Source: an uncultured Candidatus Saccharibacteria bacterium (GTDB taxonomy: Bacteria > Patescibacteriota > Minisyncoccia > UBA6257 > 2-01-FULL-56-20). From it: 64,000 nucleotides of DNA. Shown piece by piece: positions 5,475-51,697 of the stretch. The position numbers and the translations under genes were made by a program. The notes under the pieces are model-generated. The model was not told the DNA's origin. It saw only the letters and a list, made by a program, of their open reading frames with translations, and searched no databases. Position 1 is the first letter of the stretch. Each line of letters starts with the position of its first letter. The DNA lies in NCBI GenBank assembly GCA_964360585.1, contig CAYHXC010000006.1, positions 8,256-72,255 of the forward strand. Reading direction: 5' to 3'.

Positions 5475-7037
5475 ATGTCTGACTCTCATAGATTCAATCT
5501 CGCGACCATGAAAGGCAATAAGCCCTGGGCGGAAGCCGTGGCTGACGCGGTTATTGCGCAACATCCAAACGAAGAGATGTATACGGTGGCGGCGGGGATT
5601 AGTCCATCGGGTGTCGTTCACTTCGGCAACTTTCGGGACATTATGACCGCGCATATGGTCCGCGAAACATTGCAGGCGAAAGGCAAAAAAGCGCGACTCA
5701 TTTTCTCTTGGGACAATTTTGATCGTATGCGCAAAGTGCCGGCGGGCGTGCCGGAGTCCTTTTCAGAACATATAGGAAAACCGCTTTCTAAAGTGCCGGA
5801 TCCTTTCGGCGCGGTAGCTTCCTACGCCGAACATTTCCAGCAGCCGTTTGTCGAGGCCATGAAAAAGTTAGGCATAGAGATTGAGTATCGCAATCAGACG
5901 GAACTTTACGAAAGCGGTGTCTATGACGAAAAGATTAAACTCGCATTGCAACACCGAGAAGAAATCGCCGATGTGCTCCTCTCTTTTATGACCGAGAAAG
6001 CGATGACGGCGAAGGGGATTGATGCCGCCGAGTACCGCAAGAATTTCTATCCGATTTCCATCTACTCGCGATTTACCGGAAAAGATTCAACCAAGATTGT
6101 GTCATATGATGGCGATATGGGAGTGACCTACTACTGCGCCGAGACGAAGAAAAAAGATACGGTGGATTTACGTGAACATCACATTGCCAAATTGAATTGG
6201 AAGATGGACTGGCCAATGCGCTGGCAGTATGAGAATGTTCACTTTGAGCCGGGAGGGAGCGATCACGCCGCGCCTGGGAGCAGTTACGACGTTTCTACCG
6301 TAGTGGCAAAAAAAATCTTTCACATCGAACCGCCGATCTTTGTTGAGTATATGTTTGTGGGCATTCGGGGATTAGGAGCGAAGATGTCCGGTTCAAAAGG
6401 AAATGCGGTTTCGCCACTCGATCTCCTGGATATTTATGATCCGAAATTACTCTTGTGGTTGTACGAACGGAAAGACCCGAACCAGTCATTTGAACTGGCT
6501 TTTGATTCTGAAATTTACCGGCAATACGATGAGTACGATCGTGAACACGAAATTAATCAGGCCGTTTCTTTCCGGCAGTTGGTGGGTTTTGGTCAGATCG
6601 TTCAGTGGCAGGAGGATAAGCTCACGACCATCCTCGATCAACTTACATTGGATTACGATAAAAATGTAATTAGAGAGAGGCTGCCTTTGGCGAAAAGTTG
6701 GCTAGAGAAATACAACGCCGACGAGGCGGTCACTTTACGGAGCGAATCAAATCGAGAGTATATCGAAACACTAAACGAGAAGCAGAAGGCGCTTATTGCG
6801 CGTTTGCATGATGAACTTGCGACCAAACCGGAGGCCAGTATTACTGATCTCGAATTTCTGACCTACCAGATTCCCAAGGATCCGAATGTAGATGAAGCCA
6901 CACTCAAAAAAGAACAGCGGCAGTTTTTCAAAGACGTTTATAATTTGCTGATTGGAAAAGATACCGGACCGAGACTGGGAACGTTTCTCTGGGCTGCTGA
7001 TCGAAAAAAAGTGCTTGAACTCCTGAGCATTGATTAA
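5475..7037 (+). CDS. lysK: lysyl-tRNA synthetase, class I (archaeal type)
   Basis: HIGH-like VHFGNFRD and KMSKS-like KMSGSKGN class I motifs. About 520 aa, which fits class I LysRS. GGGGGA RBS. Confidence 0.8.
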   Translation: MSDSHRFNLATMKGNKPWAEAVADAVIAQHPNEEMYTVAAGISPSGVVHFGNFRDIMTAHMVRETLQAKGKKARLIFSWDNFDRMRKVPAGVPESFSEHIGKPLSKVPDPFGAVASYAEHFQQPFVEAMKKLGIEIEYRNQTELYESGVYDEKIKLALQHREEIADVLLSFMTEKAMTAKGIDAAEYRKNFYPISIYSRFTGKDSTKIVSYDGDMGVTYYCAETKKKDTVDLREHHIAKLNWKMDWPMRWQYENVHFEPGGSDHAAPGSSYDVSTVVAKKIFHIEPPIFVEYMFVGIRGLGAKMSGSKGNAVSPLDLLDIYDPKLLLWLYERKDPNQSFELAFDSEIYRQYDEYDREHEINQAVSFRQLVGFGQIVQWQEDKLTTILDQLTLDYDKNVIRERLPLAKSWLEKYNADEAVTLRSESNREYIETLNEKQKALIARLHDELATKPEASITDLEFLTYQIPKDPNVDEATLKKEQRQFFKDVYNLLIGKDTGPRLGTFLWAADRKKVLELLSID

Positions 7038-7075: not shown

Positions 7076-9145
7076 ATGATGGCAGATATTCCTCCCAAGG
7101 CTCAACGCATGACTGATGTTCGTCCGCCCGAGGCTTCACCGGGCGAAGGCCAGTTGCCAGCTGTTCTTGTTGATCAAAAGCCACAAAAAGAAGTTACTGC
7201 CGAACTTCGCGCGGCGCGAGCGCCCCGAAAAAAACTCAAGCCGCAGTTTCGTTACGCCGTGCATATCTTGATTGTTCTTGTTATTACACTTATCGTTGGG
7301 TTTGGCGTGATGCGGTTCAGTTTTTTAAGCGAGCAGATTTCACGGGCGATTGCCTCGGTTCGCATGATCGCGAAGCAGGGAATGCCGATTGCCAGTTTGC
7401 CGCAAACTGGTTCAGTGGTCTCGAAGGATACTCCCAGTCAGTTTACCTCGCTTCCAACCTCTACCTCGTTCACATCGCTTTTGCGTGGCGCCAGTCTTTC
7501 CGATATCTGGACGGTTTTTGCGCATGGCGGTGAGGCGCTTGGTCGTTTCCAAAAAACAGTTACCGACTATCAGGCCTTAAATACGGAAGTTGATGCTTTC
7601 TTGAATCAAGTTCCCGGTATTTTCCTTTCCAGCCACAAGGAGGGGCCGCTCCCATCATTACGGCGCATTCAGACAAATGTCCGGACGTTCCAGGCGCACA
7701 ATTCTGACCTTTCAACCTCGCTCACGTCGGTCAAGGATGCTTTGCCAATTGATTTTGGCGAGTACTTGGCCATGGGAAAGAGTTTGGATCGCATGTCAGA
7801 TTTTCTCGCGGCAAGCGTGCGATGGCTTGAGAAGCCGCATCATCTCGTCCTCGGATTCCAGAACTCTTCAGAGATGCGGCCATCCGGCGGATTTTTTGGC
7901 AGTTACGCCGAACTTAAAATGGCGAGCGGGACGATCTATGATCTCCAGGTTCACGACGTGACCGAAGCGGACAAAGTTTTTTCGGAGTCCATCGTGCCGC
8001 CCCAACCGCTTCAGTTCGTGACCAAAAACTGGCGCACGGCTGACGCCAACTGGTATTTTGATTTTCCCCACTCGGCTTCGCAAACTTTGGCCTTTTTAAA
8101 AAAATCCAATCTATATGCCTCGAGTACGCCGTTTGACGGATTTATCGCTGTCTCACCCCGGGTGCTTGAGGATGTTTTAAAAATTACCGGATCGATCGAG
8201 CTCAAGGATAGAAACATAACCTTGACCGCCGATAATTTCTTGCGTGAGATTCAGGGAGAGGTGGTTGCCAGTCGGGCGGATTCCGCCACCGCCCCAAAAA
8301 GTATTTTAGGCGAGATTGTTTCGGCGCTCGAGACGAGATTTATAAAACTGCCACCCGAGGATCGATCGGAACTTGCCGGACTTTTTCTTGATTGGGTGCG
8401 GTACAAGGACATCCAGGTTTTTATGACTGATCCTGAATTGCAGTCGCTCGCCCGTTACTTTGGCGCTGATGGCGGTGTGGTTTCAGGCTCGGCCGCACTG
8501 AACACTGAATACTTGGCGCTCGTTGATAGCACAATTGGCGGCGAGAAAACTAATTTGGTTCTCGATCGGACAATTACTTTCCGGGCGCAGATTGAGTCCG
8601 ACGGCAGTGTTCGTCACGAACTGAATATCGTCCGGAAGCATACAGGTGACAAAGAAAAAGAGCGCTGGTACCGCGTTCCGAACAAAACATACTTCCGCGC
8701 ACTCATCACCCCCGGCAGTGCCGTAACTGGCGCGAGTGGTTTTACCGAACGAACTTCGCCGGGACGATCGTATACCAAAGATTACGTTCGTGATTCAGGT
8801 CTGGTGGTCTACGAATCCACAATGAAAAATGTACTTGGCATTCCGTCCATCAAATTGTTTGAAGAGTCAGAGAAGATGAGTGTGGCCGGTTGGATCATAA
8901 CCGAGGTGGGAAAACAAAATAAAATGACGCTGACCTACGATTACCAACTACCGGAGAAACCGGACAACGGGGTGCCGTATCGTTTTGTTTTTGAAAAACA
9001 GGCCGGCACGGAAGGGGATTATAGTTTCGAAATTGACGCGCCGGTCGGCTATCATTTTAAGGAAAACCAACTGCCGATTTTTGAGTACAAGACGGAAGAC
9101 ATTCCAGGGAGGGTGGTGATGGATCTGACATTAGAAAAAATATAA
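7076..9145 (+). CDS. large hypothetical protein with a single N-terminal TM anchor
   Basis: 689 aa ORF with the TM segment HILIVLVITLIVGFGVM near the N-terminus. Family not recognised; a DUF4012-like assignment is possible but unverified. Confidence 0.6.
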   Translation: MMADIPPKAQRMTDVRPPEASPGEGQLPAVLVDQKPQKEVTAELRAARAPRKKLKPQFRYAVHILIVLVITLIVGFGVMRFSFLSEQISRAIASVRMIAKQGMPIASLPQTGSVVSKDTPSQFTSLPTSTSFTSLLRGASLSDIWTVFAHGGEALGRFQKTVTDYQALNTEVDAFLNQVPGIFLSSHKEGPLPSLRRIQTNVRTFQAHNSDLSTSLTSVKDALPIDFGEYLAMGKSLDRMSDFLAASVRWLEKPHHLVLGFQNSSEMRPSGGFFGSYAELKMASGTIYDLQVHDVTEADKVFSESIVPPQPLQFVTKNWRTADANWYFDFPHSASQTLAFLKKSNLYASSTPFDGFIAVSPRVLEDVLKITGSIELKDRNITLTADNFLREIQGEVVASRADSATAPKSILGEIVSALETRFIKLPPEDRSELAGLFLDWVRYKDIQVFMTDPELQSLARYFGADGGVVSGSAALNTEYLALVDSTIGGEKTNLVLDRTITFRAQIESDGSVRHELNIVRKHTGDKEKERWYRVPNKTYFRALITPGSAVTGASGFTERTSPGRSYTKDYVRDSGLVVYESTMKNVLGIPSIKLFEESEKMSVAGWIITEVGKQNKMTLTYDYQLPEKPDNGVPYRFVFEKQAGTEGDYSFEIDAPVGYHFKENQLPIFEYKTEDIPGRVVMDLTLEKI

Positions 9146-13814: not shown

Positions 13815-13949
13815 CACGTGGATATGGGTGCAATGGCGGCGCGTCTCACAGAAGAATACTCTGCGCCTTTAAGATTTTAGCGCTTAGCTTGCCAACTTTT
13901 GGTTTTTAGCTATGCACTTTAGATATTTATATTGTACAATAGAACAGTA

Positions 13950-15401
13950 ATGTCAAAAATAGAAAAGAAGGGAACGTTTCGCCTCGTGGTTTTTTTGGTT
14001 GCTATTGTATTCGCATTTACAATTTCGGTTGCAGTTGCCTCGCTTACATTTACCACCACGAATGTCACAAGCGACTCGACGCTCACCATTGACAGCGAAG
14101 GAGCACTCACAATTGGCAACGCCACTGCCACCACCGTCACCGTGGGAAGAAGTGGTTTTACGGTTTCGTTTCCGGGAAATGTCTCGACCACGAACTTCAC
14201 GGCCACAAACGTCTCGACGACCAATCTGACCGCCTCGGGGTATGGTCTGTTTACAACCTTGAACTTTACCAATACTTCGGGAACCAATATCACCGTTTCC
14301 GGATATGGAACCTTCCCGACCCTTAACTTTACCACGTCGACGGGCACTTCTTTCACGGTCACGAACGCTACCGCGACCACACTGCGTTTTACCAATGCCT
14401 CTGGTACAAGCCTTACACTTTCAAACGCCTTGGACATTTCTTCAGGAGGACTAGGAACGAGTACTGCCCCATCAGCCAGTGTGGTTCTTGTCGGCGACGG
14501 TACGAATTATCAATTTTCAACGATACCCAACTGTGCGACTGGTTCAACGGACAAGCTACTCTACACCAGTTCTACCCGAACCTTTACCTGTGGTAGCGAC
14601 CAAACGGGTGTAGGAGGAACAGAGTCCGGCTGGAGAACCAATAGTCCCTTCGTGTATCTTGCGACCTCAACTGATATTGTCGGCATCGGCGCAACTTCTA
14701 CGGGCGTGAAGTTCTCAATTCAAGGTACAAGCGTGGCTTCTACCACGCTTCTTATTCAAGGAATGGCGGCGCAAACCGGGGATCTTCTGCGCGTTGCTTC
14801 TTCTGGCGGTCAAATCTACTGGCAGATATCCTCTTTGGGCGTTGCGTCGTCGTCTGAACTTATTGTTAATTCCTCGACTATTGCGAGGCTTGCCTTTACC
14901 AATGCCACGAGCACCGGCAACCTCCAAGCGTCAACAATTAATATTACTGGAGTCTCAACGCTCCAAGGATTCACCTTTACGAACGCCACAGGAACAACTA
15001 TGAATACCTCGGGTAATGGCACTTTTGGTTCAATCACAACGACCGGCCAATCATCTTTGGTCTCGGTTTCCTCTACCAATTTGAGCGCTTCTTCGTCGCT
15101 TATTATCGGTTATGGTGCTCCGATTCTAAAACATATTTCGGTGACTTCCTCGCTTGATATCGCCAGTGTTTCAGCGTCAACATGTGTTAACACCACAAGC
15201 ACCGTAACTGGTGCGGCAACCGGAGATACGGTACTTGCGACACCAACCCCCGTAGCAAGCGGCATCGAGACTCTGGCGCTTTCGTGGAATGCATGGATTT
15301 CAGCCGCAAATACAGTTACGCTCCGAGCATGTAATATTATGACCATCACTTCCCAGGATCCTGCAGCGGAAACCTGGCGCTTCGATGTTTGGCAACATTA
15401 G
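13950..15401 (+). CDS. Thr/Ser/Asn-rich repeat surface protein (beta-helix/fibre-like) with an N-terminal membrane anchor
   Basis: Internal ~21-aa repeats (GYGLFTTLNFTNTSGTNITVS / GYGTFPTLNFTTSTGTSFTVT / ...TLRFTNASGTSLTLS), many NxT motifs, N-terminal hydrophobic segment. Confidence 0.6.
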   Translation: MSKIEKKGTFRLVVFLVAIVFAFTISVAVASLTFTTTNVTSDSTLTIDSEGALTIGNATATTVTVGRSGFTVSFPGNVSTTNFTATNVSTTNLTASGYGLFTTLNFTNTSGTNITVSGYGTFPTLNFTTSTGTSFTVTNATATTLRFTNASGTSLTLSNALDISSGGLGTSTAPSASVVLVGDGTNYQFSTIPNCATGSTDKLLYTSSTRTFTCGSDQTGVGGTESGWRTNSPFVYLATSTDIVGIGATSTGVKFSIQGTSVASTTLLIQGMAAQTGDLLRVASSGGQIYWQISSLGVASSSELIVNSSTIARLAFTNATSTGNLQASTINITGVSTLQGFTFTNATGTTMNTSGNGTFGSITTTGQSSLVSVSSTNLSASSSLIIGYGAPILKHISVTSSLDIASVSASTCVNTTSTVTGAATGDTVLATPTPVASGIETLALSWNAWISAANTVTLRACNIMTITSQDPAAETWRFDVWQH

Positions 15402-16293
15402 ACGCTATGATCGTTTTCCGTGTCGCGCACTACTTCTTGTTTTTGCGCTGGGGTTTTTACTATTGACGAATAATGCGCATGCCGCACCTCTTACTTACAG
15501 CGCAGATATAACCATCTCGCTCACCTCTCCGGCAATAGACTTTATTGTTAAATCGGGTTCATTTGCCGACACCTTAACCACGAACGCAACAAGCGCTATT
15601 GTCACACTTTCAAGTTCTACGGGAGGAAATTTTACGCTTATCTCTGCCTCACGCGATATTTCGATTGCGACCTCAAGTAGCGGCGGCGTCGTAACCACAA
15701 GTTGCACGAGCGGAGTGGCGAGTACTACGATTTCCCAGACAAATGGCTCCAGCGTCTATACGATATCAGCTGCTGCCTCGCAGTGTACCGCCTCAACCAC
15801 AGCTTCCTCCCTCACCGCAACCCCCTCAGTTACCATTGGCGTCCCACCCTATACGCCACCGTGCGATACATTACCACCCGGCACTCATGTGCCATGTCTC
15901 GTCTCACTCACAAATCCACTGGCTGTCCCGCGCGTACTGTCCTTGGAAGACCAGTTGGCAAATCCTTCCGCCATCTTGGAATCCATGCGTCGAGAAGCCA
16001 ACCGTCGCGGCATTATACCTACAGACACTTCACGCCAAAGCTTTTCTTGGATCTCGCGGAATCTCACCATAGGTTCAAGTGGAAAAGACGTGCAAGAATT
16101 ACAAGCTTTTCTTATTGGCCAGCAGAAGGGTCGCTACGCCCTTACGTTGAGAAAAATCGGTGCGAGTGGTTATTTCGGCGTCGCGACACAGCGAGCCTTA
16201 CAAGAATTTCAAGCTTTCCACAACATCAAGCCAGCGAGGGGTTACTTTGGCCCCAAGACGATCAAATACCTACGTACGTTTTTCGATCAATAG
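15385..16293 (+). CDS. secreted protein with a C-terminal peptidoglycan-binding domain (PG_binding_1-like)
   Basis: Signal peptide ending AHA|AP, a Thr/Ser-rich middle, and a C-terminal ...LQAFLIGQQ...GYFGVATQRALQEFQAFHNIKPARGYFGPKT typical of the putative PG-binding domain. Confidence 0.6.
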   Translation: MFGNIRRYDRFPCRALLLVFALGFLLLTNNAHAAPLTYSADITISLTSPAIDFIVKSGSFADTLTTNATSAIVTLSSSTGGNFTLISASRDISIATSSSGGVVTTSCTSGVASTTISQTNGSSVYTISAAASQCTASTTASSLTATPSVTIGVPPYTPPCDTLPPGTHVPCLVSLTNPLAVPRVLSLEDQLANPSAILESMRREANRRGIIPTDTSRQSFSWISRNLTIGSSGKDVQELQAFLIGQQKGRYALTLRKIGASGYFGVATQRALQEFQAFHNIKPARGYFGPKTIKYLRTFFDQ

Positions 16294-19954: not shown

Positions 19955-21037
19955 ATGGCATCGAGAAAAAAAGGTGGGGAAGAGAGTAAGAAAACAGTCA
20001 TTCGGCGGAGCACGAAGTTGAGTCCGGAGGCCAGAAAGGTGTTGAGTAGTCTGATCGTCGATAATCTGGAGATTGTCCACGACGAAGTCAAGATCGAGGC
20101 GTCGTACCTGAATGAGCCCGAGAAGATGCGATACAGCGTCTATCTTAAGAAGTTTCTCGTTGATCAACAAGCGAGATTGCTCGACTTGTACGCCTACACC
20201 GATCCGTTCTACTGCGACTTCGATCCCGACTTTGCCGGTGTTGAGTCGGAGGAGTTGGCGGAGCTTCGCAACAACTTCGTTGCCGCCTACTTGAAAGTGG
20301 CGATGGCGGAGTATCCGGGGTCACTTCTGGGATTGCGGCATCTGACCTTCCTTGCCAACTACTGTCTGGTTTGGTTCGAAAACATTTTCGAGAGTCGCGT
20401 TCTCCTCGAGGTCGTGCCCTCGGAAACGACGGATTGCCCGACAGTTGAGTTGCCTGGACCAGATGGTTCGCCGACTTTCTACGCCTGTCGTCATCCGGAA
20501 GGACGGTCATTGATCGATGTTCTGCGGGACAAAGCGGCGCCATACTGGGCAGAGGTGGACGCAAAGGAGAAGGCGGCACTCGAAGCCCAAAAACAAAAGG
20601 ACGCATCAATCCGAGACGAGGCTCGTGCACGTCGCGAACGTGAGGAGCGAGAGTTCAGAGGTGTCGTCGAGAATATCCGCAAGAAGACGACCGGAACGCC
20701 CGAGGACGTTTTCCAGAGGGGCAACGGGTTTGCGCTCATTCGTGTGCCGGGCGTGATCCTCGCCGGCGGTAAGACTACTCGGGAGACCTATCTCCTCGTC
20801 GAAGCTCATCAGAATGGGCGTGGCACGATGCTTCTCGTCCGTAACTGTGTGGGCGAGAACTGGAACGATGTCATTCGTTCCGGCGCTGGCATTCCGGCGT
20901 CATGGGCCTTCCGTGATGGGGAGAGGATCGACTTCGGCCATATTCCCGATGCGCTTCGGGAGCACAGTGAGCGGCTGCACGCCGCGATTCGCGGCCATTT
21001 CCGTCGACAGTACGCGGAACGTTCGCGGAGTAGGTAA
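19955..21037 (+). CDS. hypothetical protein (360 aa), GC-richer than its surroundings
   Basis: ORF track. Own promoter and terminator. No family recognised. Confidence 0.55.
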   Translation: MASRKKGGEESKKTVIRRSTKLSPEARKVLSSLIVDNLEIVHDEVKIEASYLNEPEKMRYSVYLKKFLVDQQARLLDLYAYTDPFYCDFDPDFAGVESEELAELRNNFVAAYLKVAMAEYPGSLLGLRHLTFLANYCLVWFENIFESRVLLEVVPSETTDCPTVELPGPDGSPTFYACRHPEGRSLIDVLRDKAAPYWAEVDAKEKAALEAQKQKDASIRDEARARREREEREFRGVVENIRKKTTGTPEDVFQRGNGFALIRVPGVILAGGKTTRETYLLVEAHQNGRGTMLLVRNCVGENWNDVIRSGAGIPASWAFRDGERIDFGHIPDALREHSERLHAAIRGHFRRQYAERSRSR

Positions 21038-39382: not shown

Positions 39383-41500
39383 ATGAAAAGAATCCTTACG
39401 GTTTTCTTTTCTCTTAGCCTTGTTTTTGCTCTTGCTCAAGTATCTGAAGTTCGCGCCTCAGGAAATGGTCCGTTCTTCACGGGTTGGTCGCCACTTACAA
39501 CTGCCACGGCTACCCAGCCGTACCAGTATGATGTGAATGCTCAGGATCCGGAGAATGATGTGTTAGTTTACAGTCTATTGTCCGCACCAGCTGGTATGAC
39601 AATCGACAGTGCCACCGGAGTAATCTCCTGGACGCCGGATGCCTCACAGGTATCCGCGACGCCGTATGACGTCGAAGTCGAGGTTTCCGATGGTTCGAAC
39701 ACAATCTCGCGACCGTTTCAGGTAACAGTGTCCGGAAGTAATCTCGGTCCATTCTTCATTCAGTGGGCGCCAGTCACGACTGCTACAGCCACCGAGTTGT
39801 ACGGTTATGACGTAAACGCCTTTGATCCGGAAAACGATCCGTTGACGTATAGTTTGGTAACCGCACCGTCTGGTATGACGATCGACAGTTCGACTGGCGT
39901 GATCTCTTGGACGCCCGACATCGCCCAGGTCTCAACGACCCCGTACGATGCCGAGGTTGAAGTTACTGATGGTGTAAATACCATCGCTCGTCCGTTTCAG
40001 GTGACGGTAGCGGCTCCGACTTCCGGTAGTGGAAATCTCGGTCCATTCTTCATTCAGTGGGCGCCAGTCACGACTGCGACAGCCGACCAGCTGTACTGGT
40101 ACGACGTAAACGCCTTTGATCCGGAGAATGATCCGTTGACTTTCAGTTTGGTCAGTTCGACCCCAGCAGGAATCACGATTAACGCTTCGAGCGGTTTGAT
40201 CGAGTGGACACCAACACAAGCTCAAGCTACTTCGACCGCGTACGTGATCAATGTTCAGGTTGCTGATCCGACGCACGCTGTTAGCCGGGACTTTCCGATT
40301 ACGGTGAGTTTGGCGACAACGTCTACCAACATCGGTCCGTTTTTCCAGGGCTGGAATCCACTCACCACTGCTACAGCCACCGTGCCGTACAGTTATGATG
40401 TGAATGCCCAGGACGGGGAGAACGATCCGCTGACCTATACTTTGGTCAGCTCGACGCCGGCTGGTATGACGATTAACGCTTCGAGCGGTTTGATCGAGTG
40501 GACACCCACTTTGACTCAAGCTACTTCGACACCGTATGACGTGACCGTGCAGGTCAACGATCCCTTCACTGCGGATCCGACCCACACGATTCAACGCAGC
40601 TTCCAGATCACTGTAGCCGATGCACCGACTTCGACCACACCAACTTCAACACCGCCGGTTAATCCACCAGGAGGTGGAGGCGGAGGAGGGGGCGGTGGCG
40701 GTGGTGGGGGAGGCGGATCAATCACTTTGGTCCCTTCTTCTAACCCGTCCTGTCCTCCGAACTGTGGTGGTGGCGGACCGATTGGAGTTCCGACCGGAAG
40801 CGTAAATCTTCCGCCGTACTTCGTTGGTTTCAATCCGATCACAGTGGCGCCAATTAACGTTATGTATTTGTACGACGCTAATGCTACTGACCCGGAGAAT
40901 CAGCCGCTCACTTTCAGTATCTTGGAAGGACCGGCTGGTCTTGGCATCCTACCGAGTAATGGCTTGATCTACTGGACCCCGACGGCCAGCCAGGCTCGCA
41001 CCACGCCGTACACGGTTATGGTGCAGGTCTCGGACGGTACGCTCGTGGCCACGACCTCGTATGCGATTACGGTTCCGGTGACGTTGATTGTGACTACACC
41101 TGTAGTCGTGACCCCGACGCCGACCGTTACGCCGATAGGTTCAGGCGATGCGACAACGACTCTTGCGACCACAACCGCTCCGGTTGCGGTCGCACCGAGC
41201 CCGCTCCTCGCTATGCTTACCGGTATCGCTGACTGGTTCCGCGACAATTACTGCGTGATGGGCTACCTCCTGTGGCTCTTGACCGTTCTTGCCTGGCTTG
41301 CCTATCTTCTCTTTGACGAAAGAGAGGAGAGCAAGGACCGAGCGCGAGCGGCCGAGGAGTTGCAAGAAGAGCTTGATGACGTAGCCGATATGGTCGAAGA
41401 ACCGATCATGGCGCATCCGAGCACGCGTTTTTCGGGAGGCTCAACTACGTTTGAGACAACTCCGCAAAATCTCGCGACAGGCCAAGGAAGAGAGGTTTAA
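39383..41500 (+). CDS. secreted surface protein: signal peptide, 6 He_PIG/cadherin-like Ig repeats, G16 linker, C-terminal TM and an acidic tail
   Basis: Repeats GPFF(T/I)(G/Q)W(S/A)P(L/V)TTATAT.PY.YDVNA.DPEND.L.YSL..AP.GMTIDS.TGVISWTP; GGGGGGGGGGGGGGGG at nt ~40670-40717; YLLWLLTVLAWLAYLLF TM. Confidence 0.7.
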   Translation: MKRILTVFFSLSLVFALAQVSEVRASGNGPFFTGWSPLTTATATQPYQYDVNAQDPENDVLVYSLLSAPAGMTIDSATGVISWTPDASQVSATPYDVEVEVSDGSNTISRPFQVTVSGSNLGPFFIQWAPVTTATATELYGYDVNAFDPENDPLTYSLVTAPSGMTIDSSTGVISWTPDIAQVSTTPYDAEVEVTDGVNTIARPFQVTVAAPTSGSGNLGPFFIQWAPVTTATADQLYWYDVNAFDPENDPLTFSLVSSTPAGITINASSGLIEWTPTQAQATSTAYVINVQVADPTHAVSRDFPITVSLATTSTNIGPFFQGWNPLTTATATVPYSYDVNAQDGENDPLTYTLVSSTPAGMTINASSGLIEWTPTLTQATSTPYDVTVQVNDPFTADPTHTIQRSFQITVADAPTSTTPTSTPPVNPPGGGGGGGGGGGGGGGGSITLVPSSNPSCPPNCGGGGPIGVPTGSVNLPPYFVGFNPITVAPINVMYLYDANATDPENQPLTFSILEGPAGLGILPSNGLIYWTPTASQARTTPYTVMVQVSDGTLVATTSYAITVPVTLIVTTPVVVTPTPTVTPIGSGDATTTLATTTAPVAVAPSPLLAMLTGIADWFRDNYCVMGYLLWLLTVLAWLAYLLFDEREESKDRARAAEELQEELDDVADMVEEPIMAHPSTRFSGGSTTFETTPQNLATGQGREV

Positions 41501-41512
41501 AAACCCTAAGAA

Positions 41513-41538
41513 GCCGCTCAGAAATGAGCGGCTTTTTA
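41513..41538 (+). terminator. rho-independent terminator
   Basis: GCCGCTCAgaaaTGAGCGGC followed by TTTTT. Confidence 0.7.
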
Positions 41539-41584
41539 GTTTCTTTTTCGATTTTTCAGTCTTCAGATTTTCTCCATGAATCCT

Positions 41585-41613
41585 TTGACACAATACAAAA
41601 TATGACGTAGAAT
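41585..41613 (+). promoter_or_regulatory. sigma70 promoter TTGACA-N17-TAGAAT
   Basis: Seen directly upstream of gene 41682. Confidence 0.55.
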
Positions 41614-41681
41614 GCGGCCAGTTCCAGATCATCGTCAACTTAAAATTCTGAACCGAAAACTTTGAGAAAGAGGAGGCAACC

Positions 41682-43802
41682 ATGAAATGTGTCAGGATTA
41701 TCGTCATTTTTTTGACGATAGCGTTCCTGGCGGGAGGGGCGGTGGCGCAGTCGAACTGCTTCATTGTTCATTCTGGCCCAGGATGCGACGATCCAGTTTG
41801 CGCGGATAAAGTTTGCGCACTCGATCGTTGCCCGTTCTGCTGCAGCCCCAATAATAAACAGTGGGACACGAGTTGCGCCAATGAGGCGAACGCCTTATGT
41901 CGCGGCACGGCAACGCCGGCACTGACAGTGACGTCCAGCCGGACGATCACCCCGAGCCCAACGGCGACACTTACACCGCCTGACGACAGTACGGTGACGC
42001 CGATACCCACGACAACGTGGACTCGGACAACTGTGCCGTCGGGAACTCCAACGGCAACATTTGTTCCACCGACGTCGACTGTAACGGCGAGTGTGACTCC
42101 GATGGGGACCTTATCTCCATCGGGCACGCCACTGAACACGGCGACGCCAACGTTTACGGCAACAGTAACGTTCACACCGACTCCAAGCGACACACTGACG
42201 CGTACCCCAACCGGGACACGAACAGAAACGGTGACGGGAACGCCAACGAATACGGCAATTCCGACGCCGACTATGACGCGTACGGGAACAACGACACCCA
42301 CACCAAGCGGAGACTGTTGCAGTGAACACGACGAACCGGGATGTAAGATTCCGGCGTGTCAGGCGGCAGTGTGTAATCCGAATGGTATTGGGGATCCTTC
42401 GTGCTGTATGGCGCTCTTCACATCGCCGCATTGGGATGCTTCGTGTGTTGGAGCAGCATTCTTTTATCAAAACGAATGTGGATGCCAAGCTCCAACGCCA
42501 ACAGCAACGGCGACCATGACGGGTACGCTCGTTCCGACGCAGACTCGTACACCAACAATGACGCGAACGCCGACGAACACACGGACCGCAACTGAAACCA
42601 GAACGGCAACGGAAATCCCGGCACCGACGGAAACAGAAGTGCCGACGGATACGCCAGAGCCAACGGAAACATCGGCACCCACGAACACGCGGACGTTCAC
42701 TAAGACGGCCACGATGACGCGGACACCGACATGGACAAAGACGGAAACTACGATGCCGGAGCCGACGGAAACTGAAGCTCCGACAGAAACCCCGGAATCG
42801 ACCGAGACAGCGGTACCGACGAATACTCGGACCGCGACTCGCACTCCGACCTGGACGCGTACACCAACAATGACGCGAACAGCAACGAGAACGCCGACGG
42901 TGGAATCGTCAGTTGGGAGCTGTTGTGAGGCTCACGATACTCCTGGCTGCAATGAACCGGTTTGCGAATCGGTAATCTGCTCCATTGATCCGTTGTGCTG
43001 TCAGCCGAGCGGTATTCGCACAGATTTTGATTTGAGCTGTGCGAGTATTCCGAACGATCCGCGGTATCGGGAGTTCTGCGCTTGCGCACAACAACCGGAA
43101 CCAACAGAAACACCGACCGAGGTATTCACGGCAACGCGGACACCAACATCAACTCGGACAATGACGTTCACGCGGACACCGACTGCCACTAAAACAGCGG
43201 TGGACACTCCGACAGAGACTCCAACGCGTACTCCGACAGATACCAGGACCGACACTCCGACGCGGACACCGACTGATACTTGGACCGAGACTCCAACGCG
43301 TACCCCCAGCGGGACGCGTGAACCGACGGAGACGCGGACGGCTACTCGGACTCCGACAAACACCAGAACCGATACGCCGACTCGGACGGATACTCCGACG
43401 CGGACACCAACGGACACCCGGACGGAGATTCCTTCGCGAACTCCAACTGGGACACGTGAACCAACGGAGACGCGGACATTTACGCCAAGTCGAGTGCCAA
43501 CAGATACGCGCACCGCGACACCGGTCAATCCAACCCGGACACCAACTGCAGGAATGTGTGGTATAAACCCTGTATGTTGGGGCGACTGTGACGGCAACTG
43601 TCGCGTCACGGTCGATGAGATGGTAACCGGAGTGAATCTTCTCTTCGAGAAGGAGTCTCCGACCTTTGAGCCCTGTTTCTTCCAATTCAATCGAAGCAGG
43701 GAACGAGATCCTCGTCGGGCAGTTCCGCCTCCGAGGATTACGGTGGATGAGCTAGTGACAGGCGTGAATAATCTGCTTCACAGCTGCCAGCGACCACAGT
43801 GA
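41682..43802 (+). CDS. secreted Thr/Pro-rich protein with three Cys-rich modules and a C-terminal dockerin-like tandem repeat
   Basis: Signal peptide. Modules CFIVHSGPGCDDPVC...C, DCCSEHDEPGCKIPACQAAVCNP...C, SCCEAHDTPGCNEPVCESVIC...C separated by (TPT.TRT)n linkers. C-terminus GDCDGNCRVTVDEMVTGVNLL ... RITVDELVTGVNNLL resembles dockerin Ca-binding repeats. Confidence 0.65.
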   Translation: MKCVRIIVIFLTIAFLAGGAVAQSNCFIVHSGPGCDDPVCADKVCALDRCPFCCSPNNKQWDTSCANEANALCRGTATPALTVTSSRTITPSPTATLTPPDDSTVTPIPTTTWTRTTVPSGTPTATFVPPTSTVTASVTPMGTLSPSGTPLNTATPTFTATVTFTPTPSDTLTRTPTGTRTETVTGTPTNTAIPTPTMTRTGTTTPTPSGDCCSEHDEPGCKIPACQAAVCNPNGIGDPSCCMALFTSPHWDASCVGAAFFYQNECGCQAPTPTATATMTGTLVPTQTRTPTMTRTPTNTRTATETRTATEIPAPTETEVPTDTPEPTETSAPTNTRTFTKTATMTRTPTWTKTETTMPEPTETEAPTETPESTETAVPTNTRTATRTPTWTRTPTMTRTATRTPTVESSVGSCCEAHDTPGCNEPVCESVICSIDPLCCQPSGIRTDFDLSCASIPNDPRYREFCACAQQPEPTETPTEVFTATRTPTSTRTMTFTRTPTATKTAVDTPTETPTRTPTDTRTDTPTRTPTDTWTETPTRTPSGTREPTETRTATRTPTNTRTDTPTRTDTPTRTPTDTRTEIPSRTPTGTREPTETRTFTPSRVPTDTRTATPVNPTRTPTAGMCGINPVCWGDCDGNCRVTVDEMVTGVNLLFEKESPTFEPCFFQFNRSRERDPRRAVPPPRITVDELVTGVNNLLHSCQRPQ

Positions 43803-43825: not shown

Positions 43826-43861
43826 CCCCCAGGTGCACAATGTGTGTCTGGGGATTTTTTA
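43826..43861 (+). terminator. rho-independent terminator
   Basis: CCCCCAGGtgcacaatgtgtgtCTGGGG followed by ATTTTTT. Confidence 0.7.
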
Positions 43862-50812: not shown

Positions 50813-51697
50813 TTATTTTTCGTCGTCGTCGACGATGGCGCCGCGCTTCTTGAGGTCGGCGCGCTGCGCGTCGGTGAAGTCGACACCACGGAGGTCGGTA
50901 TTGGTGAGTATGATGTGGTGGACAACAATCCAGCCGGGGCCGTCAGGGTCGGGGCGGATGGAGCCTTGGAGGCTCCTATAATCGATTTTCGCTCCTCGGA
51001 GATTGGCTTCGGTGAGGTCGACGCTGAGAAAACTGGTGTTGGTGAGGTCAGCACCTTCGAGGTTGGCGCCGGTGAAGTTACTGTTGCGGAAGTGCACGCT
51101 GTGGAGATCAGCGCCTTTGAGGTTGGCACCCGTGAAGTCGGTGCGGATTGTTTTACCCTCATGGAGACCGGAAAGATCAGCACCTTCGAGGTTGGCGCCG
51201 GTGAAGTTGGCGTGGCTTAAGGTTGCGATATCGAATTTGGCACCTTCGAGGTTGGCGTCGGTGAAGTTGGCACTAAGGCAAAAGGTGTCTTTGAGGTTGG
51301 CCCCCCGGAGGTCGGCGCCGGTGAGATCAAGGTTGTGGAGGTCGGCATCGAAGAGGTCGAGGTTGCGGAGGTCGGCGCCTTTGAGGTCGAGGCCTTCAAG
51401 GTCCTTCCGTAAGATTCTCTTTCCTTCCAGTGTCCACGCATAGATTCTCGATAACGCAGTGTCTGGGTGCTCCTCAATTTGACGAAGGCGCTCCTCTGAC
51501 AGAGCGGCGTCGGTGACGGCCTTGGAGGTCGTTTCAATTGCTGCCGCCGGGTCGATGACTTTGAGTTCGGCATCACGGTCGGTGCCTTTACTTCTTTCAC
51601 GTATCATCTGATCGTCTCTGACTCTCGCGAGTCGCTCTCGTGGGGGCAGTTCGATTTTGCTTTTTTCTCCCTCGGCCTTTGGCGGTTTTTCCTTCAT
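50813..51697 (-). CDS. pentapeptide-repeat protein
   Basis: About 30 consecutive A(D/N)LxG pentapeptides (ADLRNLDLFDADLHNLDLTGADLRGANLKD...). Confidence 0.85.
   Translation of the reverse strand: MKEKPPKAEGEKSKIELPPRERLARVRDDQMIRERSKGTDRDAELKVIDPAAAIETTSKAVTDAALSEERLRQIEEHPDTALSRIYAWTLEGKRILRKDLEGLDLKGADLRNLDLFDADLHNLDLTGADLRGANLKDTFCLSANFTDANLEGAKFDIATLSHANFTGANLEGADLSGLHEGKTIRTDFTGANLKGADLHSVHFRNSNFTGANLEGADLTNTSFLSVDLTEANLRGAKIDYRSLQGSIRPDPDGPGWIVVHHIILTNTDLRGVDFTDAQRADLKKRGAIVDDDEK

Follow-up and report, generated by a model that had tools for sequence, protein, structure and literature searches.

Adjacent bacterial genes for a cadherin-like membrane protein and for a predicted exported Cys-module protein with a C-terminal EF-hand-type loop-helix module

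Two adjacent genes were found in the window (the whole stretch of DNA analysed, 64,000 nucleotides); gene 1 encodes a He_PIG/cadherin-like membrane protein, and gene 2 encodes a protein with three Cys modules and a C-terminal EF-hand-type loop-helix pair. The best explanation of the whole, with a probability of roughly 55%, is that gene 1 encodes an adhesin and gene 2 a secreted modular protein with a Ca-loop attachment module. For both genes, the architecture, the assignment to families, the conservation and the signals for transcription were established; a link between their proteins is putative. The host would be an uncultured groundwater Patescibacterium of the Paceibacteria / Liptonbacteria-Jorgensenbacteria neighbourhood with two separately transcribed cell-envelope protein genes; the relatives of uvrB were found in Patescibacteria MAGs throughout. 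All features described below are on the forward strand.

Gene 1 was found at positions 39383..41500 (705 aa) and gene 2 at 41682..43802 (706 aa), and these ORF coordinates were verified as exact; the proteins had been called giant, a word that does not suit two chains of only about 705 aa. Both ORFs are genuine; they are kept in the nearest relative, and each is followed by a terminator of its own. The region 3′ of gene 1 was found to contain an intrinsic terminator (41506..41539; 15-bp stem, loop of 4, T-rich tail), followed by a sigma-70-type promoter of gene 2 (41585..41613; TTGACA-17-TAGAAT, 11/12 consensus positions) and by a GGAGG Shine-Dalgarno sequence, read directly, 7 nt upstream of the ATG. 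A second intrinsic terminator was found 3′ of gene 2 (43827..43853; 12-bp stem, loop of 3, T6 tail). Judged by these signals, genes 1 and 2 are predicted to be separate transcription units. The close relative L001 was found to contain the gene order exo - gene 1 - gene 2 - uvrB, as in the window, with the gene 1 orthologue kept in its position, whereas L002 contained a gene 2-like gene upstream of uvrB without an adjacent gene 1. The gene 2 orthologues of both relatives were located immediately upstream of uvrB. The adjacency of the two genes was conserved in one of the two close relatives and was not found at three distant He_PIG loci, and the same locus was present on the Hainich groundwater contig L083 with 99.98% identity and zero gaps. 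The earlier note had read the genes as a surface adhesion or scaffold pair; a functional pair was not supported, given the separate terminators, the strong promoter of gene 2 and an adjacency that L001 shares and L002 does not.

The protein of gene 1 was found to have a signal peptide and five He_PIG/cadherin-like domains with a Gly16 hinge; a TM helix and an acidic tail on the cytoplasmic side follow. It matched He_PIG of Pfam in five stretches (E 1.3e-49, 167 bits, cut-off 24) and, more weakly, Big_9, Cadherin_5 and RibLong. The best solved relatives in the PDB were cadherin-23 (4.5e-5) and protocadherin-15, and the He_PIG/cadherin-like assignment made earlier was borne out. The He_PIG repeats 1-4 (39461..40633; aa 27-119, 120-212, 217-311 and 315-417) were delimited by the Pfam stretches and by repeat self-alignment, in which they were found to share the motif PFF..W.P.TTATA..Y.YDVNA.DPENDPLT. 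The membrane-proximal repeat 5 (40799..41077; aa 473-565) aligned with repeats 1-4, and the isolated C-terminal part matched He_PIG at E 2.1e-07. The Ig-like repeats described previously were therefore recovered, whereas their number was found to be five (4 + 1) instead of six by Pfam and self-alignment. The TM helix (41249..41317; aa ~623-645), which had been proposed as a C-terminal anchor, was found as the one C-terminal hydrophobic helix in addition to the signal peptide (Kyte-Doolittle windows >1.6, peak 2.04); it was followed by an acidic tail of ~60 aa, and its sequence was kept in the L001 orthologue. Gene 1 encodes a type I membrane protein, ordinary in kind. The five cadherin-like (He_PIG) Ig domains would be held off the cell by a Thr/Pro/Val stalk anchor, with the poly-Gly hinge between domains 4 and 5; the role of gene 1 may be adhesion, and a role in adhesion at the cell surface is plausible.

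The Gly16 linker was found exactly where a GGN-encoded run had been reported (40670..40717), followed by a small CPPNC motif. The same run had been put forward as a potential slipped-strand contingency site. Such a locus would switch or resize the adhesin, and the Gly run is indeed 16 residues long in the window and 8 in the L001 orthologue. However, the tract was found to consist of mixed codons, with a longest perfect period-3 stretch of 8 nt, a longest mononucleotide (G) run of 5 nt and only 74-80% matches in TRF, as in an imperfect repeat. Slippage in 3-nt units preserves the reading frame, so the tract would be unable to work as an on/off switch, and the independent assembly of the same population (L083) contained a tract of identical length without gaps. 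A contingency locus at this position is extremely improbable.

Gene 2 was found to encode a signal peptide, three Cys modules, Thr/Pro linkers and the C-terminal loop-helix pair, and the full protein gave zero matches in Pfam and NCBIfam. Its sole hydrophobic segment was N-terminal, and neither a TM helix nor an LPXTG motif was found, which is consistent with a Sec-exported product that would be anchorless. The signal peptides of both proteins agree with the export proposed for them. Threonine made up 26% and proline 13% of the protein. The three Thr/Pro-rich linkers (41907..42302, 42486-42908 and 43086-43565) were recognized by composition and sequence and contained alternating T-x-T-x, with imperfect tandem repeats of 18 and 36 nt at 42624-42671, 42855-42894, 43211-43303 and 43371-43405. 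The antisense Gly/Val-rich ORFs over these linkers are by-products of the Thr/Pro composition.

Cys module 1 (41745..41906; aa 22-75) was found to contain 9 Cys, with the second Cys of the CC pair missing and an extra Cys ahead of the PFCC motif. Cys module 2 (42303..42485; aa 208-268) contained 10 Cys and kept the W-D motif, and Cys module 3 (42909..43085; aa 410-468) contained 10 Cys with F-D instead of W-D. The modules scored 44.1, 32.9 and 37.3 bits, respectively, against a profile made from no window sequence, and the earlier description of three paralogous modules separated by Thr/Pro linkers was confirmed. The structure prediction suggested for them gave, for module 2, an AF2 model in which three short helices were seen (pLDDT 87.9). 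Exhaustive HMMER searches of the family yielded 869 cluster representatives (50% identity) at E<=1e-3, 28 of them at E<=1e-30, and single proteins contained as many as 25 tandem copies. The consensus was G-x-C-C-x2-H-x2-P-G-C-x-D-x2-C-[CE]-x2-V-C-x2-D-P-F-C-C-x3-W-D-x2-C-A-x2-A-x3-C-x2-C, and among 1005 aligned instances the Cys was invariant at 7 columns, together with W-D. The host proteins were found to contain signal peptides and features of extracellular proteins, namely dockerin, Por_Secre_tail, GBD_T9SS_assoc, GEVED, LVIVD, P_proprotein and NIDO. No relative was found in the PDB by sequence or by fold, and a literature search found no paper on the family. The family of the module is large, extracellular, found across phyla and widespread, yet unnamed and undescribed; it is possibly DUF8252 of Pfam (PF26780), recorded as a faint precomputed match on one relative only (P0151). 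The earlier note had named, as outcomes that would speak against it, failed dockerin and He_PIG profile searches and a Cys spacing matching a known unrelated family; no such spacing match was found, and the combination was observed only in part.

Ten Cys within ~55 residues could also bind metal, in the manner of a metallothionein or zinc knuckle, instead of being knotted by disulfides, in which case gene 2 would sequester or sense extracellular metals; the anoxic groundwater habitat, the lack of a solved fold for comparison and the His that is commonest at column 11 (424/1005) are in keeping with this. Against it, the same column was often occupied by Asn (354/1005), the commonest pattern contained an even Cys count (10), and the Cys of column 8 mostly stood in for that of column 22 and vice versa, as is expected for alternative disulfide partners. 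All host proteins were secreted, and the AF2 fold was confident and compact without any metal. Metal binding is very improbable, and the Cys modules would presumably be disulfide-bonded in this Patescibacterium of anoxic groundwater. The three modules, which are small, mainly helical and probably held by five disulfides each, would be carried on extended Thr/Pro linkers and may serve for binding or as spacers that withstand proteases and redox changes.

The chain of gene 2 ends in a module of ~70 aa with four conserved Cys and two EF-hand-type loop-helix motifs. This Cys-stapled pair (43566..43793; aa 629-704) scored 50.6 bits against a window-free family profile, and 4/4 conserved Cys were present. 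Two dockerin-like Ca-binding motifs had been described here. Both VTVDE[ML]VTGVN helices were found, and loop 1 was intact and of Ca type (DCDGNCRVTVDE), whereas the second helix was preceded by RAVPPPRITVDE and an insertion without acidic ligands, so that the second motif stands as a helix with a degenerate loop. The modules of L001 and L002 were found to retain DxDxD...E in the second Ca loop. The AF2 model (pLDDT 68, moderate) contained helices at 23-33, 46-50 and 67-80 and none ahead of loop 1; a module without an entering helix would have the F-hand layout common to dockerins.

The dockerin-like naming of this C-terminus was upheld only as a distant relation. Alignment by hhalign of the family with the dockerin-type modules of other-phyla Cys-module proteins gave a probability of 83.7% (E 8e-6), and those modules matched solved dockerins at 1e-11 to 1e-7. 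The isolated C-terminus of gene 2 gave no Dockerin_1 match even at E<=10 and -1 bit against the dockerin-type profile A6, with EF-hand_1 (E=0.25) as the sole Pfam match. Within the family, EF-hand models matched 38/52 members and Dockerin_1 matched 4/52, and the family profile found calmodulin in the PDB and no dockerins. Dockerins 4fl4_A and 2ccl_B were the top relevant Foldseek matches of the model, with non-significant E values of 4 and 9. From these comparisons, the C-terminus is assigned to an EF-hand-type family with no more than a distant relationship to dockerins.

A true cohesin-dockerin scaffold, in which this C-terminus would dock into a cohesin encoded by gene 1 or by some other gene of the genome and so form a cellulosome-like surface assembly, would account for the duplicated loop-helix topology, the extreme C-terminal position and the neighbouring gene 1 in the window and in L001, in addition to the Foldseek and hhalign matches. 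The EF-hand matches, the missing Dockerin_1 match and the degenerate second loop argue against it. No cohesin was found in gene 1 or among the exported or large window proteins scanned, which leaves the assembly proposed earlier without a partner in that set; moreover, the Ig-like domains of gene 1 are of ~90 aa, whereas cohesins are jelly rolls of ~140 aa, and the two genes appear to be transcribed separately. Such a scaffold is quite improbable.

The family of the C-terminal module was found in 463 matches on very diverse proteins, and 102/121 matches were located <=12 residues from the C-terminus. This position, like that of T9SS CTDs or PEP-CTERM tags, would also suit a Ca-stabilised folding cap, or a sorting or retention signal of an export or wall-attachment system, in place of a docking piece; other Cys-module proteins were found to end in a T9SS sorting domain (Por_Secre_tail, P0089 and P0024) or in a dockerin-type module. 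However, the module, a folded Ca-loop domain stapled by Cys, is not a hydrophobic or beta-sandwich tag, a dedicated sorting enzyme was not seen in the window, and Patescibacteria are not known to possess an outer membrane or a T9SS. A cap or sorting signal is rather unlikely. The attachment module of the preferred explanation would bind Ca2+, in this protein through the first loop only, and may serve as a non-covalent attachment piece which keeps or places the gene 2 protein on a putative surface partner. Since loop 2 is lost in the window protein, Ca-dependent docking may be weakened.

Compared with the He_PIG (PF05345)/dystroglycan-type cadherin-like bacterial surface proteins, gene 1 is alike in its five tandem Ig-like domains of ~90 aa, far over the Pfam cut-off, and in its export and membrane anchoring. 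In place of a sortase, S-layer or T1SS context it has a simple TM anchor of type I with an acidic tail in the cytoplasm, and a further difference is the pure Gly16 hinge ahead of the last domain. The three modules of gene 2 fit the profile of the unnamed Cys-rich family and keep its invariant Cys framework, and the protein, like many members, terminates in a Ca-loop module. Unlike the head-to-tail members, the window modules are spaced by Thr/Pro linkers of 130-160 aa and contain insertions between the VC and CC motifs, with the F-D of module 3 and the shifted Cys of module 1, and the partner Ca module is of the CVGDC/EF-hand type and not of the Dockerin_1 type.

The C-terminal module resembles the type I dockerin (PF00404) of cellulosomes in its length of ~60-70 aa, its extreme C-terminal place after a Thr/Pro linker, its two loop-helix repeats that lack an entering helix and its distant profile-profile similarity to dockerin-type modules, and dockerins were its nearest, non-significant, solved folds. 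It differs from them in the absence of a Dockerin_1 HMM match, the four stapling Cys, the degenerate second loop with an insertion and the lack of a cohesin among the exported or large window proteins scanned; position 12 of its loop is Glu, as in EF-hands, whereas dockerins contain Asp. With EF-hand pairs (PF00036, PF13405, PF13499; calmodulin-like) it shares a first loop that fits the 12-residue D-x-D-x-N-...-E pattern, the EF-hand matches of its family and calmodulin as the best PDB sequence match. Unlike canonical EF-hand pairs, it is extracellular and Cys-stapled, has no predicted entering helix before loop 1, reaches only E=0.25 when the window member is taken alone, and forms the terminal module of diverse secreted proteins.

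Both open reading frames were found exactly at the coordinates claimed in the earlier note, gene 1 at 39383..41500 (+, 705 aa) and gene 2 at 41682..43802 (+, 706 aa), and at these lengths neither product is giant as had been claimed. A strong intrinsic terminator was read from the sequence 3′ of gene 1 (41506-41539, +), followed by a sigma-70-type promoter of gene 2 with 11/12 consensus positions (41585-41613, +), a GGAGG ribosome-binding site (+) and gene 2's own terminator (43827-43853, +). Since each gene was found to contain its own terminator and gene 2 its own promoter, the two are neighbours and not an operon. The local GC content was 0.55 at 40-44 kb versus about 0.48 elsewhere in the window. 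Horizontal transfer was set aside as the source of this rise because Thr/Pro/Gly/Arg-rich coding suffices to account for it and L001, the nearest relative found via UvrB, shows synteny at this locus. On the strand opposite gene 2, several long ORFs (125-229 aa, within 41768-43690, −) were rejected as genes; they are a Gly/Val-rich low-complexity mirror of the Thr/Pro strand, arise because the coding strand is ACN/CCN-rich and should stay unannotated.

Elsewhere in the window, the most GC-rich 2-kb bin (0.553) was found to contain a 360-aa ORF (19955-21037, +) with a charged coiled segment in its centre, no obvious signal peptide and zero Pfam matches. A 489-aa Thr/Ser/Asn-rich exported protein (13932-15401, +) contained repeated 'FTN.SGT / TN.STTN' motifs and zero Pfam matches, followed by a 302-aa exported protein (15385-16293, +) whose sole match was a C-terminal PG_binding_1 domain; these may be another surface-protein pair. 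A pentapeptide-repeat protein with a charged N-terminal region was found at 50813-51697 (−; Pentapeptide, 2e-36).

Gene 2 encodes a secreted, unanchored chain in which three Cys modules of an undescribed family (aa 22-75, 208-268 and 410-468) are carried on Thr/Pro linkers, followed by a C-terminal loop-helix pair (aa 629-704). Zero Pfam or NCBIfam matches were found for the whole protein or the isolated modules. The three window modules by themselves gave no match in a word-indexed homologue search, so that an exhaustive HMMER search was needed, and a chimeric query of four modules returned only two proteins, neither of them orthologous. The exhaustive search, with an alignment of the three modules as query, was found to yield 869 representatives (50% clusters) at E<=1e-3 and 28 at E<=1e-30, with up to 25 matched copies in a single protein. 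The consensus, taken from 1005 near-full-length instances in the best 150 proteins, contained G-x-C-C-x2-H-x2-P-G-C-x-D-x2-C-C-x2-V-C-x2-D-P-F-C-C-x3-W-D-x2-C-A-x2-A-x3-C-x2-C, in which seven Cys columns together with the W and D were invariant or near-invariant. Window modules 1-3 scored 44.1, 32.9 and 37.3 bits, respectively, against a profile made without window sequences and were found to contain the invariant Cys framework, which places them in this family; module 3 contained F-D instead of W-D, and module 1 had no Cys at columns 8 and 22. Cys was present at just one of columns 8 and 22 in 332 and 227 instances, at both in 178 and at neither in about 27. The two positions are mostly alternatives, as would be expected of interchangeable disulfide partners. 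An improbable rival reading is that the Cys modules bind metal.

The Cys-module family was unmatched in the Pfam-A and NCBIfam libraries used; a faint precomputed match of one relative (P0151) to DUF8252 (PF26780) was the sole trace of that model, the window protein having no such entry. The AF2 model of module 2 (pLDDT 87.9) contained three short helices, for which Foldseek returned nothing in the PDB and one meaningless match in the viral library, and the family profile gave only a chance 17-residue aldolase match among PDB sequences (E=1.6). The host proteins were found to contain signal peptides and dockerin, T9SS sorting domains, GBD_T9SS_assoc, GEVED, LVIVD, P_proprotein or NIDO, and these extracellular partners together with the signal peptides mark the Cys module as a promiscuous extracellular unit of several phyla. 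Some Cys-module proteins were near-pure tandem arrays on poly-Gly linkers, such as P0001 with 17 copies in 935 aa (among P0001-P0150, the handles of such proteins). The names of the clusters to which ten Cys-module proteins belong were uninformative, and nothing relevant was found in the literature on the Cys-module, DUF8252 and C-terminal module motifs or on dockerin and cysteine-rich with Planctomycetes or Patescibacteria.

At their C-termini, the L001 protein and that of a second close relative, L002, could be aligned to the last ~75 residues of gene 2. A profile of these three sequences matched 463 proteins at E<=1, with the consensus C-V-G-D-C-D-x2-G-x-V-T-V-D-E-L-V-x-G-V-N-I-A-L-G-x6-C-P-x-F-D-x3-D-x2-V-T-V-D-E-L-V-x-A-V-N-N-A-L-x-G-C. 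The window module scored 50.6 bits (E 6.7e-18, one sequence) against a profile made without window sequences, and C632, C636, C665 and C702 align with the four conserved Cys columns, by which it belongs to the 'CVGDC...VTVDEL..GVNIALG...C..FD..GDG.VTVDEL..AVNNAL.GC' family. The module lay <=12 residues from the protein C-terminus in 102 of the 121 matches listed, which are mostly short fragments. A less likely rival to attachment is that this terminal module serves sorting or folding.

The earlier note had described this C-terminus as dockerin-like, with two Ca-binding motifs. Loop 1 was found to be intact (DCDGNCRVTVDE), fitting by inspection the 12-residue EF-hand (PF00036 / PF13405 / PF13499) pattern with ligands at 1, 3, 5 and 12, but loop 2 (RAVPPPRITVDE) contained an insertion and lacked the acidic ligands at positions 1, 3 and 5. 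Dockerins have a duplicated F-hand, in which both Ca-binding loops are intact and lead into a helix; in the window protein loop 2 is degenerate, whereas L001 and L002 keep both loops (DxDxD...E). Dockerin_1 (PF00404) gave no match to the whole of gene 2 at E<=1 or to the isolated C-terminus at E<=10, and EF-hand_1 reached 11.4 bits on the latter (E=0.25), below the cut-off of 25.4. Among 52 members of the C-terminal family, EF-hand_1 was matched in 38 (best 6.6e-08), EF-hand_6 in 36 and Dockerin_1 in 4 (at E<=0.01). In the PDB, the 60 best matches to the family profile included calmodulin (1.8e-3) and further proteins with EF-hands but not one dockerin. The AF2 model of the module (pLDDT 68) contained a helix after each loop and a short connecting helix, with none before loop 1, a predicted F-hand layout of the kind also seen in dockerins; Foldseek ranked the dockerins 4fl4_A and 2ccl_B first and third for this model, but at non-significant E-values of 4 and 9. 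In other phyla, the Cys module is accompanied by Ca-loop modules (profile A6) that were real dockerin relatives, matching 2y3n_B at 9.6e-12 and also 1daq, 1ohz_B and 2ccl_B. The window-type family aligned with A6 over both repeats at an hhalign probability of 83.7% (E 8e-6), while the window module itself scored only -1 bit against A6. The dockerin-like label holds as distant kinship, but not as a Dockerin_1 domain: the gene 2 C-terminus is a loop-helix pair of EF-hand type, stapled by Cys and distantly related to dockerins. Chains of Cys modules that end in a Ca-loop module recur in several phyla, with two flavours of this end module.

The adjacent UvrB matched solely Patescibacteria MAGs in a scan of one genome per species; the relatives were labelled Paceibacteria, Liptonbacteria, Jorgensenbacteria and similar, the nearest two at 83% and 80% identity. 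A class I lysyl-tRNA synthetase (5475-7037, +; tRNA-synt_1f, 2.4e-110) adjoins a 689-aa DUF4012 protein (7076-9145, +), and both are in keeping with Patescibacteria. The gene 2 product is on record, unchanged, from a Hainich groundwater contig (L083; ENA ERZ1292623, well H51, 0.1-um fraction), which aligns with the window over 16.7 kb without gaps at 99.98% identity; its three substitutions all lie outside genes 1-2. In L001, as in the window, an exonuclease gene is followed by the orthologues of gene 1 and gene 2 and then by uvrB, with an additional Cys-rich Thr/Pro protein inserted in the otherwise kept order. This extra 462-aa exported protein (L001:8438-9826, +), located between the gene 2 orthologue and uvrB, contained Thr/Pro linkers, a different repeated Cys module (CCQYPYAHYPDGSQAECGADVTETYCLEHEGVFYAGSTCQANGYC) and zero Pfam matches; the window has nothing at that position, and akin GCC...C...C...NGYC modules were found in the gene 2-like protein of L002.

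In L002 the gene 2-like gene (L002:6792-9386, +) precedes uvrB, and gene 1 is absent. Its ORF includes a masked N run and was found to contain a weak SdrD_B-like domain (24 bits, below cut-off) between the Cys modules and the C-terminal Ca-loop module, so that the cargo between the conserved ends differs among close relatives. Directly upstream (L002:3587-6663, +), several consecutive genes look like extracytoplasmic thiol-redox genes; judged by eye, they encode a CcdA/DsbD-like membrane protein, a thioredoxin-fold protein of 432 aa with CxxC, MsrA and MsrB. Their position next to a many-Cys protein may or may not be meaningful. Neither module was found at any of the other 78 loci examined. 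With gene 1 as query, metagenomes yielded just three distant He_PIG loci, all of them lacking a gene 2-like neighbour, the Cys module and the C-terminal module.

Gene 1 was found to match Pfam He_PIG (PF05345) in five stretches at 167 bits (cut-off 24, E 1.3e-49), repeat 5 on its own reaching 31.7 bits and the L001 orthologue 122.9 bits. Cadherin_5 (PF17892) was matched at 37.3 bits (cut-off 26.5) and Cadherin (PF00028) was borderline at 28.8 bits (cut-off 28.8), and Big_9, Ig_SIBA-E_2nd and RibLong, like Cadherin_5, gave weaker Pfam matches than He_PIG. The best solved relatives in the PDB were cadherin-23 EC1-2 (4.5e-5) and protocadherin-15 (3.5e-4), which together with the HMM score make the protein cadherin-like. 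Self-alignment gave four N-terminal repeats and one past the Gly hinge, so that the He_PIG/cadherin-like nature of the repeats was confirmed but their number is five and not six; the L001 orthologue contained 3+1 repeats and Gly8. A signal peptide, one hydrophobic helix (aa ~623-645), as expected from the claimed C-terminal TM anchor, and an acidic tail of ~60 aa make gene 1 a type I membrane protein. It is a cadherin-like membrane adhesin candidate of an ordinary type.

The run of 16 Gly was present at nt 40670-40717 (+) as claimed, and its proposed role as a slipped-strand contingency switch was weighed against its composition. The length of the run varies between species (16 in the window, 8 in L001), but the codons were found to be mixed (such as GGA GGT GGA GGC), perfect period-3 stretches reached at most 8 nt and G runs at most 5, and the TRF units matched only 74-80%. 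The tract was identical in length and gap-free in the independent Hainich contig L083. The imperfect repeat and the equal length in L083 set it apart from a simple-sequence contingency locus, which would need a perfect short tandem repeat whose length varies among members of a population, and triplet slippage keeps the reading frame, which also speaks against a switch. Nothing suggests a switch in the tract despite the difference between species. Poly-Gly linkers occur both in gene 1 and in some Cys-module array proteins, and secreted proteins of this sort may use them repeatedly.

A life attached to other cells is assumed for Patescibacteria, whose surface proteins are largely uncharacterised. 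The cohesin-dockerin assembly suggested in the earlier note, by which genes 1 and 2 would form a true pair, has the distant dockerin kinship of gene 2 on its side, but no Cohesin was found in gene 1, gene 2 and 19 other proteins of the 64-kb window, including every predicted exported one, and gene 2 contains no Dockerin_1 match; such an assembly is unlikely. Most of what that note observed was correct, apart from four points: the repeat number (five), the size of the proteins (not giant), the Ca loops (only one intact) and the GGN run (imperfect). Its interpretation is partly supported. For gene 2 we propose instead that the terminal module would provide Ca-dependent, non-covalent attachment and that the Cys modules would act as disulfide-knotted binding or spacer units. 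More broadly, and at a probability of only about 0.15, the Cys module may be a new extracellular fold family whose members, whatever the phylum, regularly come with a Ca-loop module at the end, of the Dockerin_1 type in Planctomycetes-like organisms and of the CVGDC/EF-hand type in Patescibacteria, the two together forming a cohesin-independent, Ca-dependent attachment system that in an episymbiotic Patescibacterium could mediate host-cell contact.

The greater use of gene 2 is as a signpost to two large module families, of which the Cys module is repeatedly paired with a terminal Ca-loop module that comes in two distantly related types. If this coupling is a common attachment mechanism, the dockerin idea would extend to organisms in which no cohesin was found; if true, a module of ~70 aa and one of ~55 aa, both easily expressed, would give a concrete handle on how small cells grip surfaces or hosts. 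Both families are large and had no curated model in the libraries used, no solved structure and no paper found, and gene 2 itself is a variation on a known modular, dockerin-bearing type of secreted protein.
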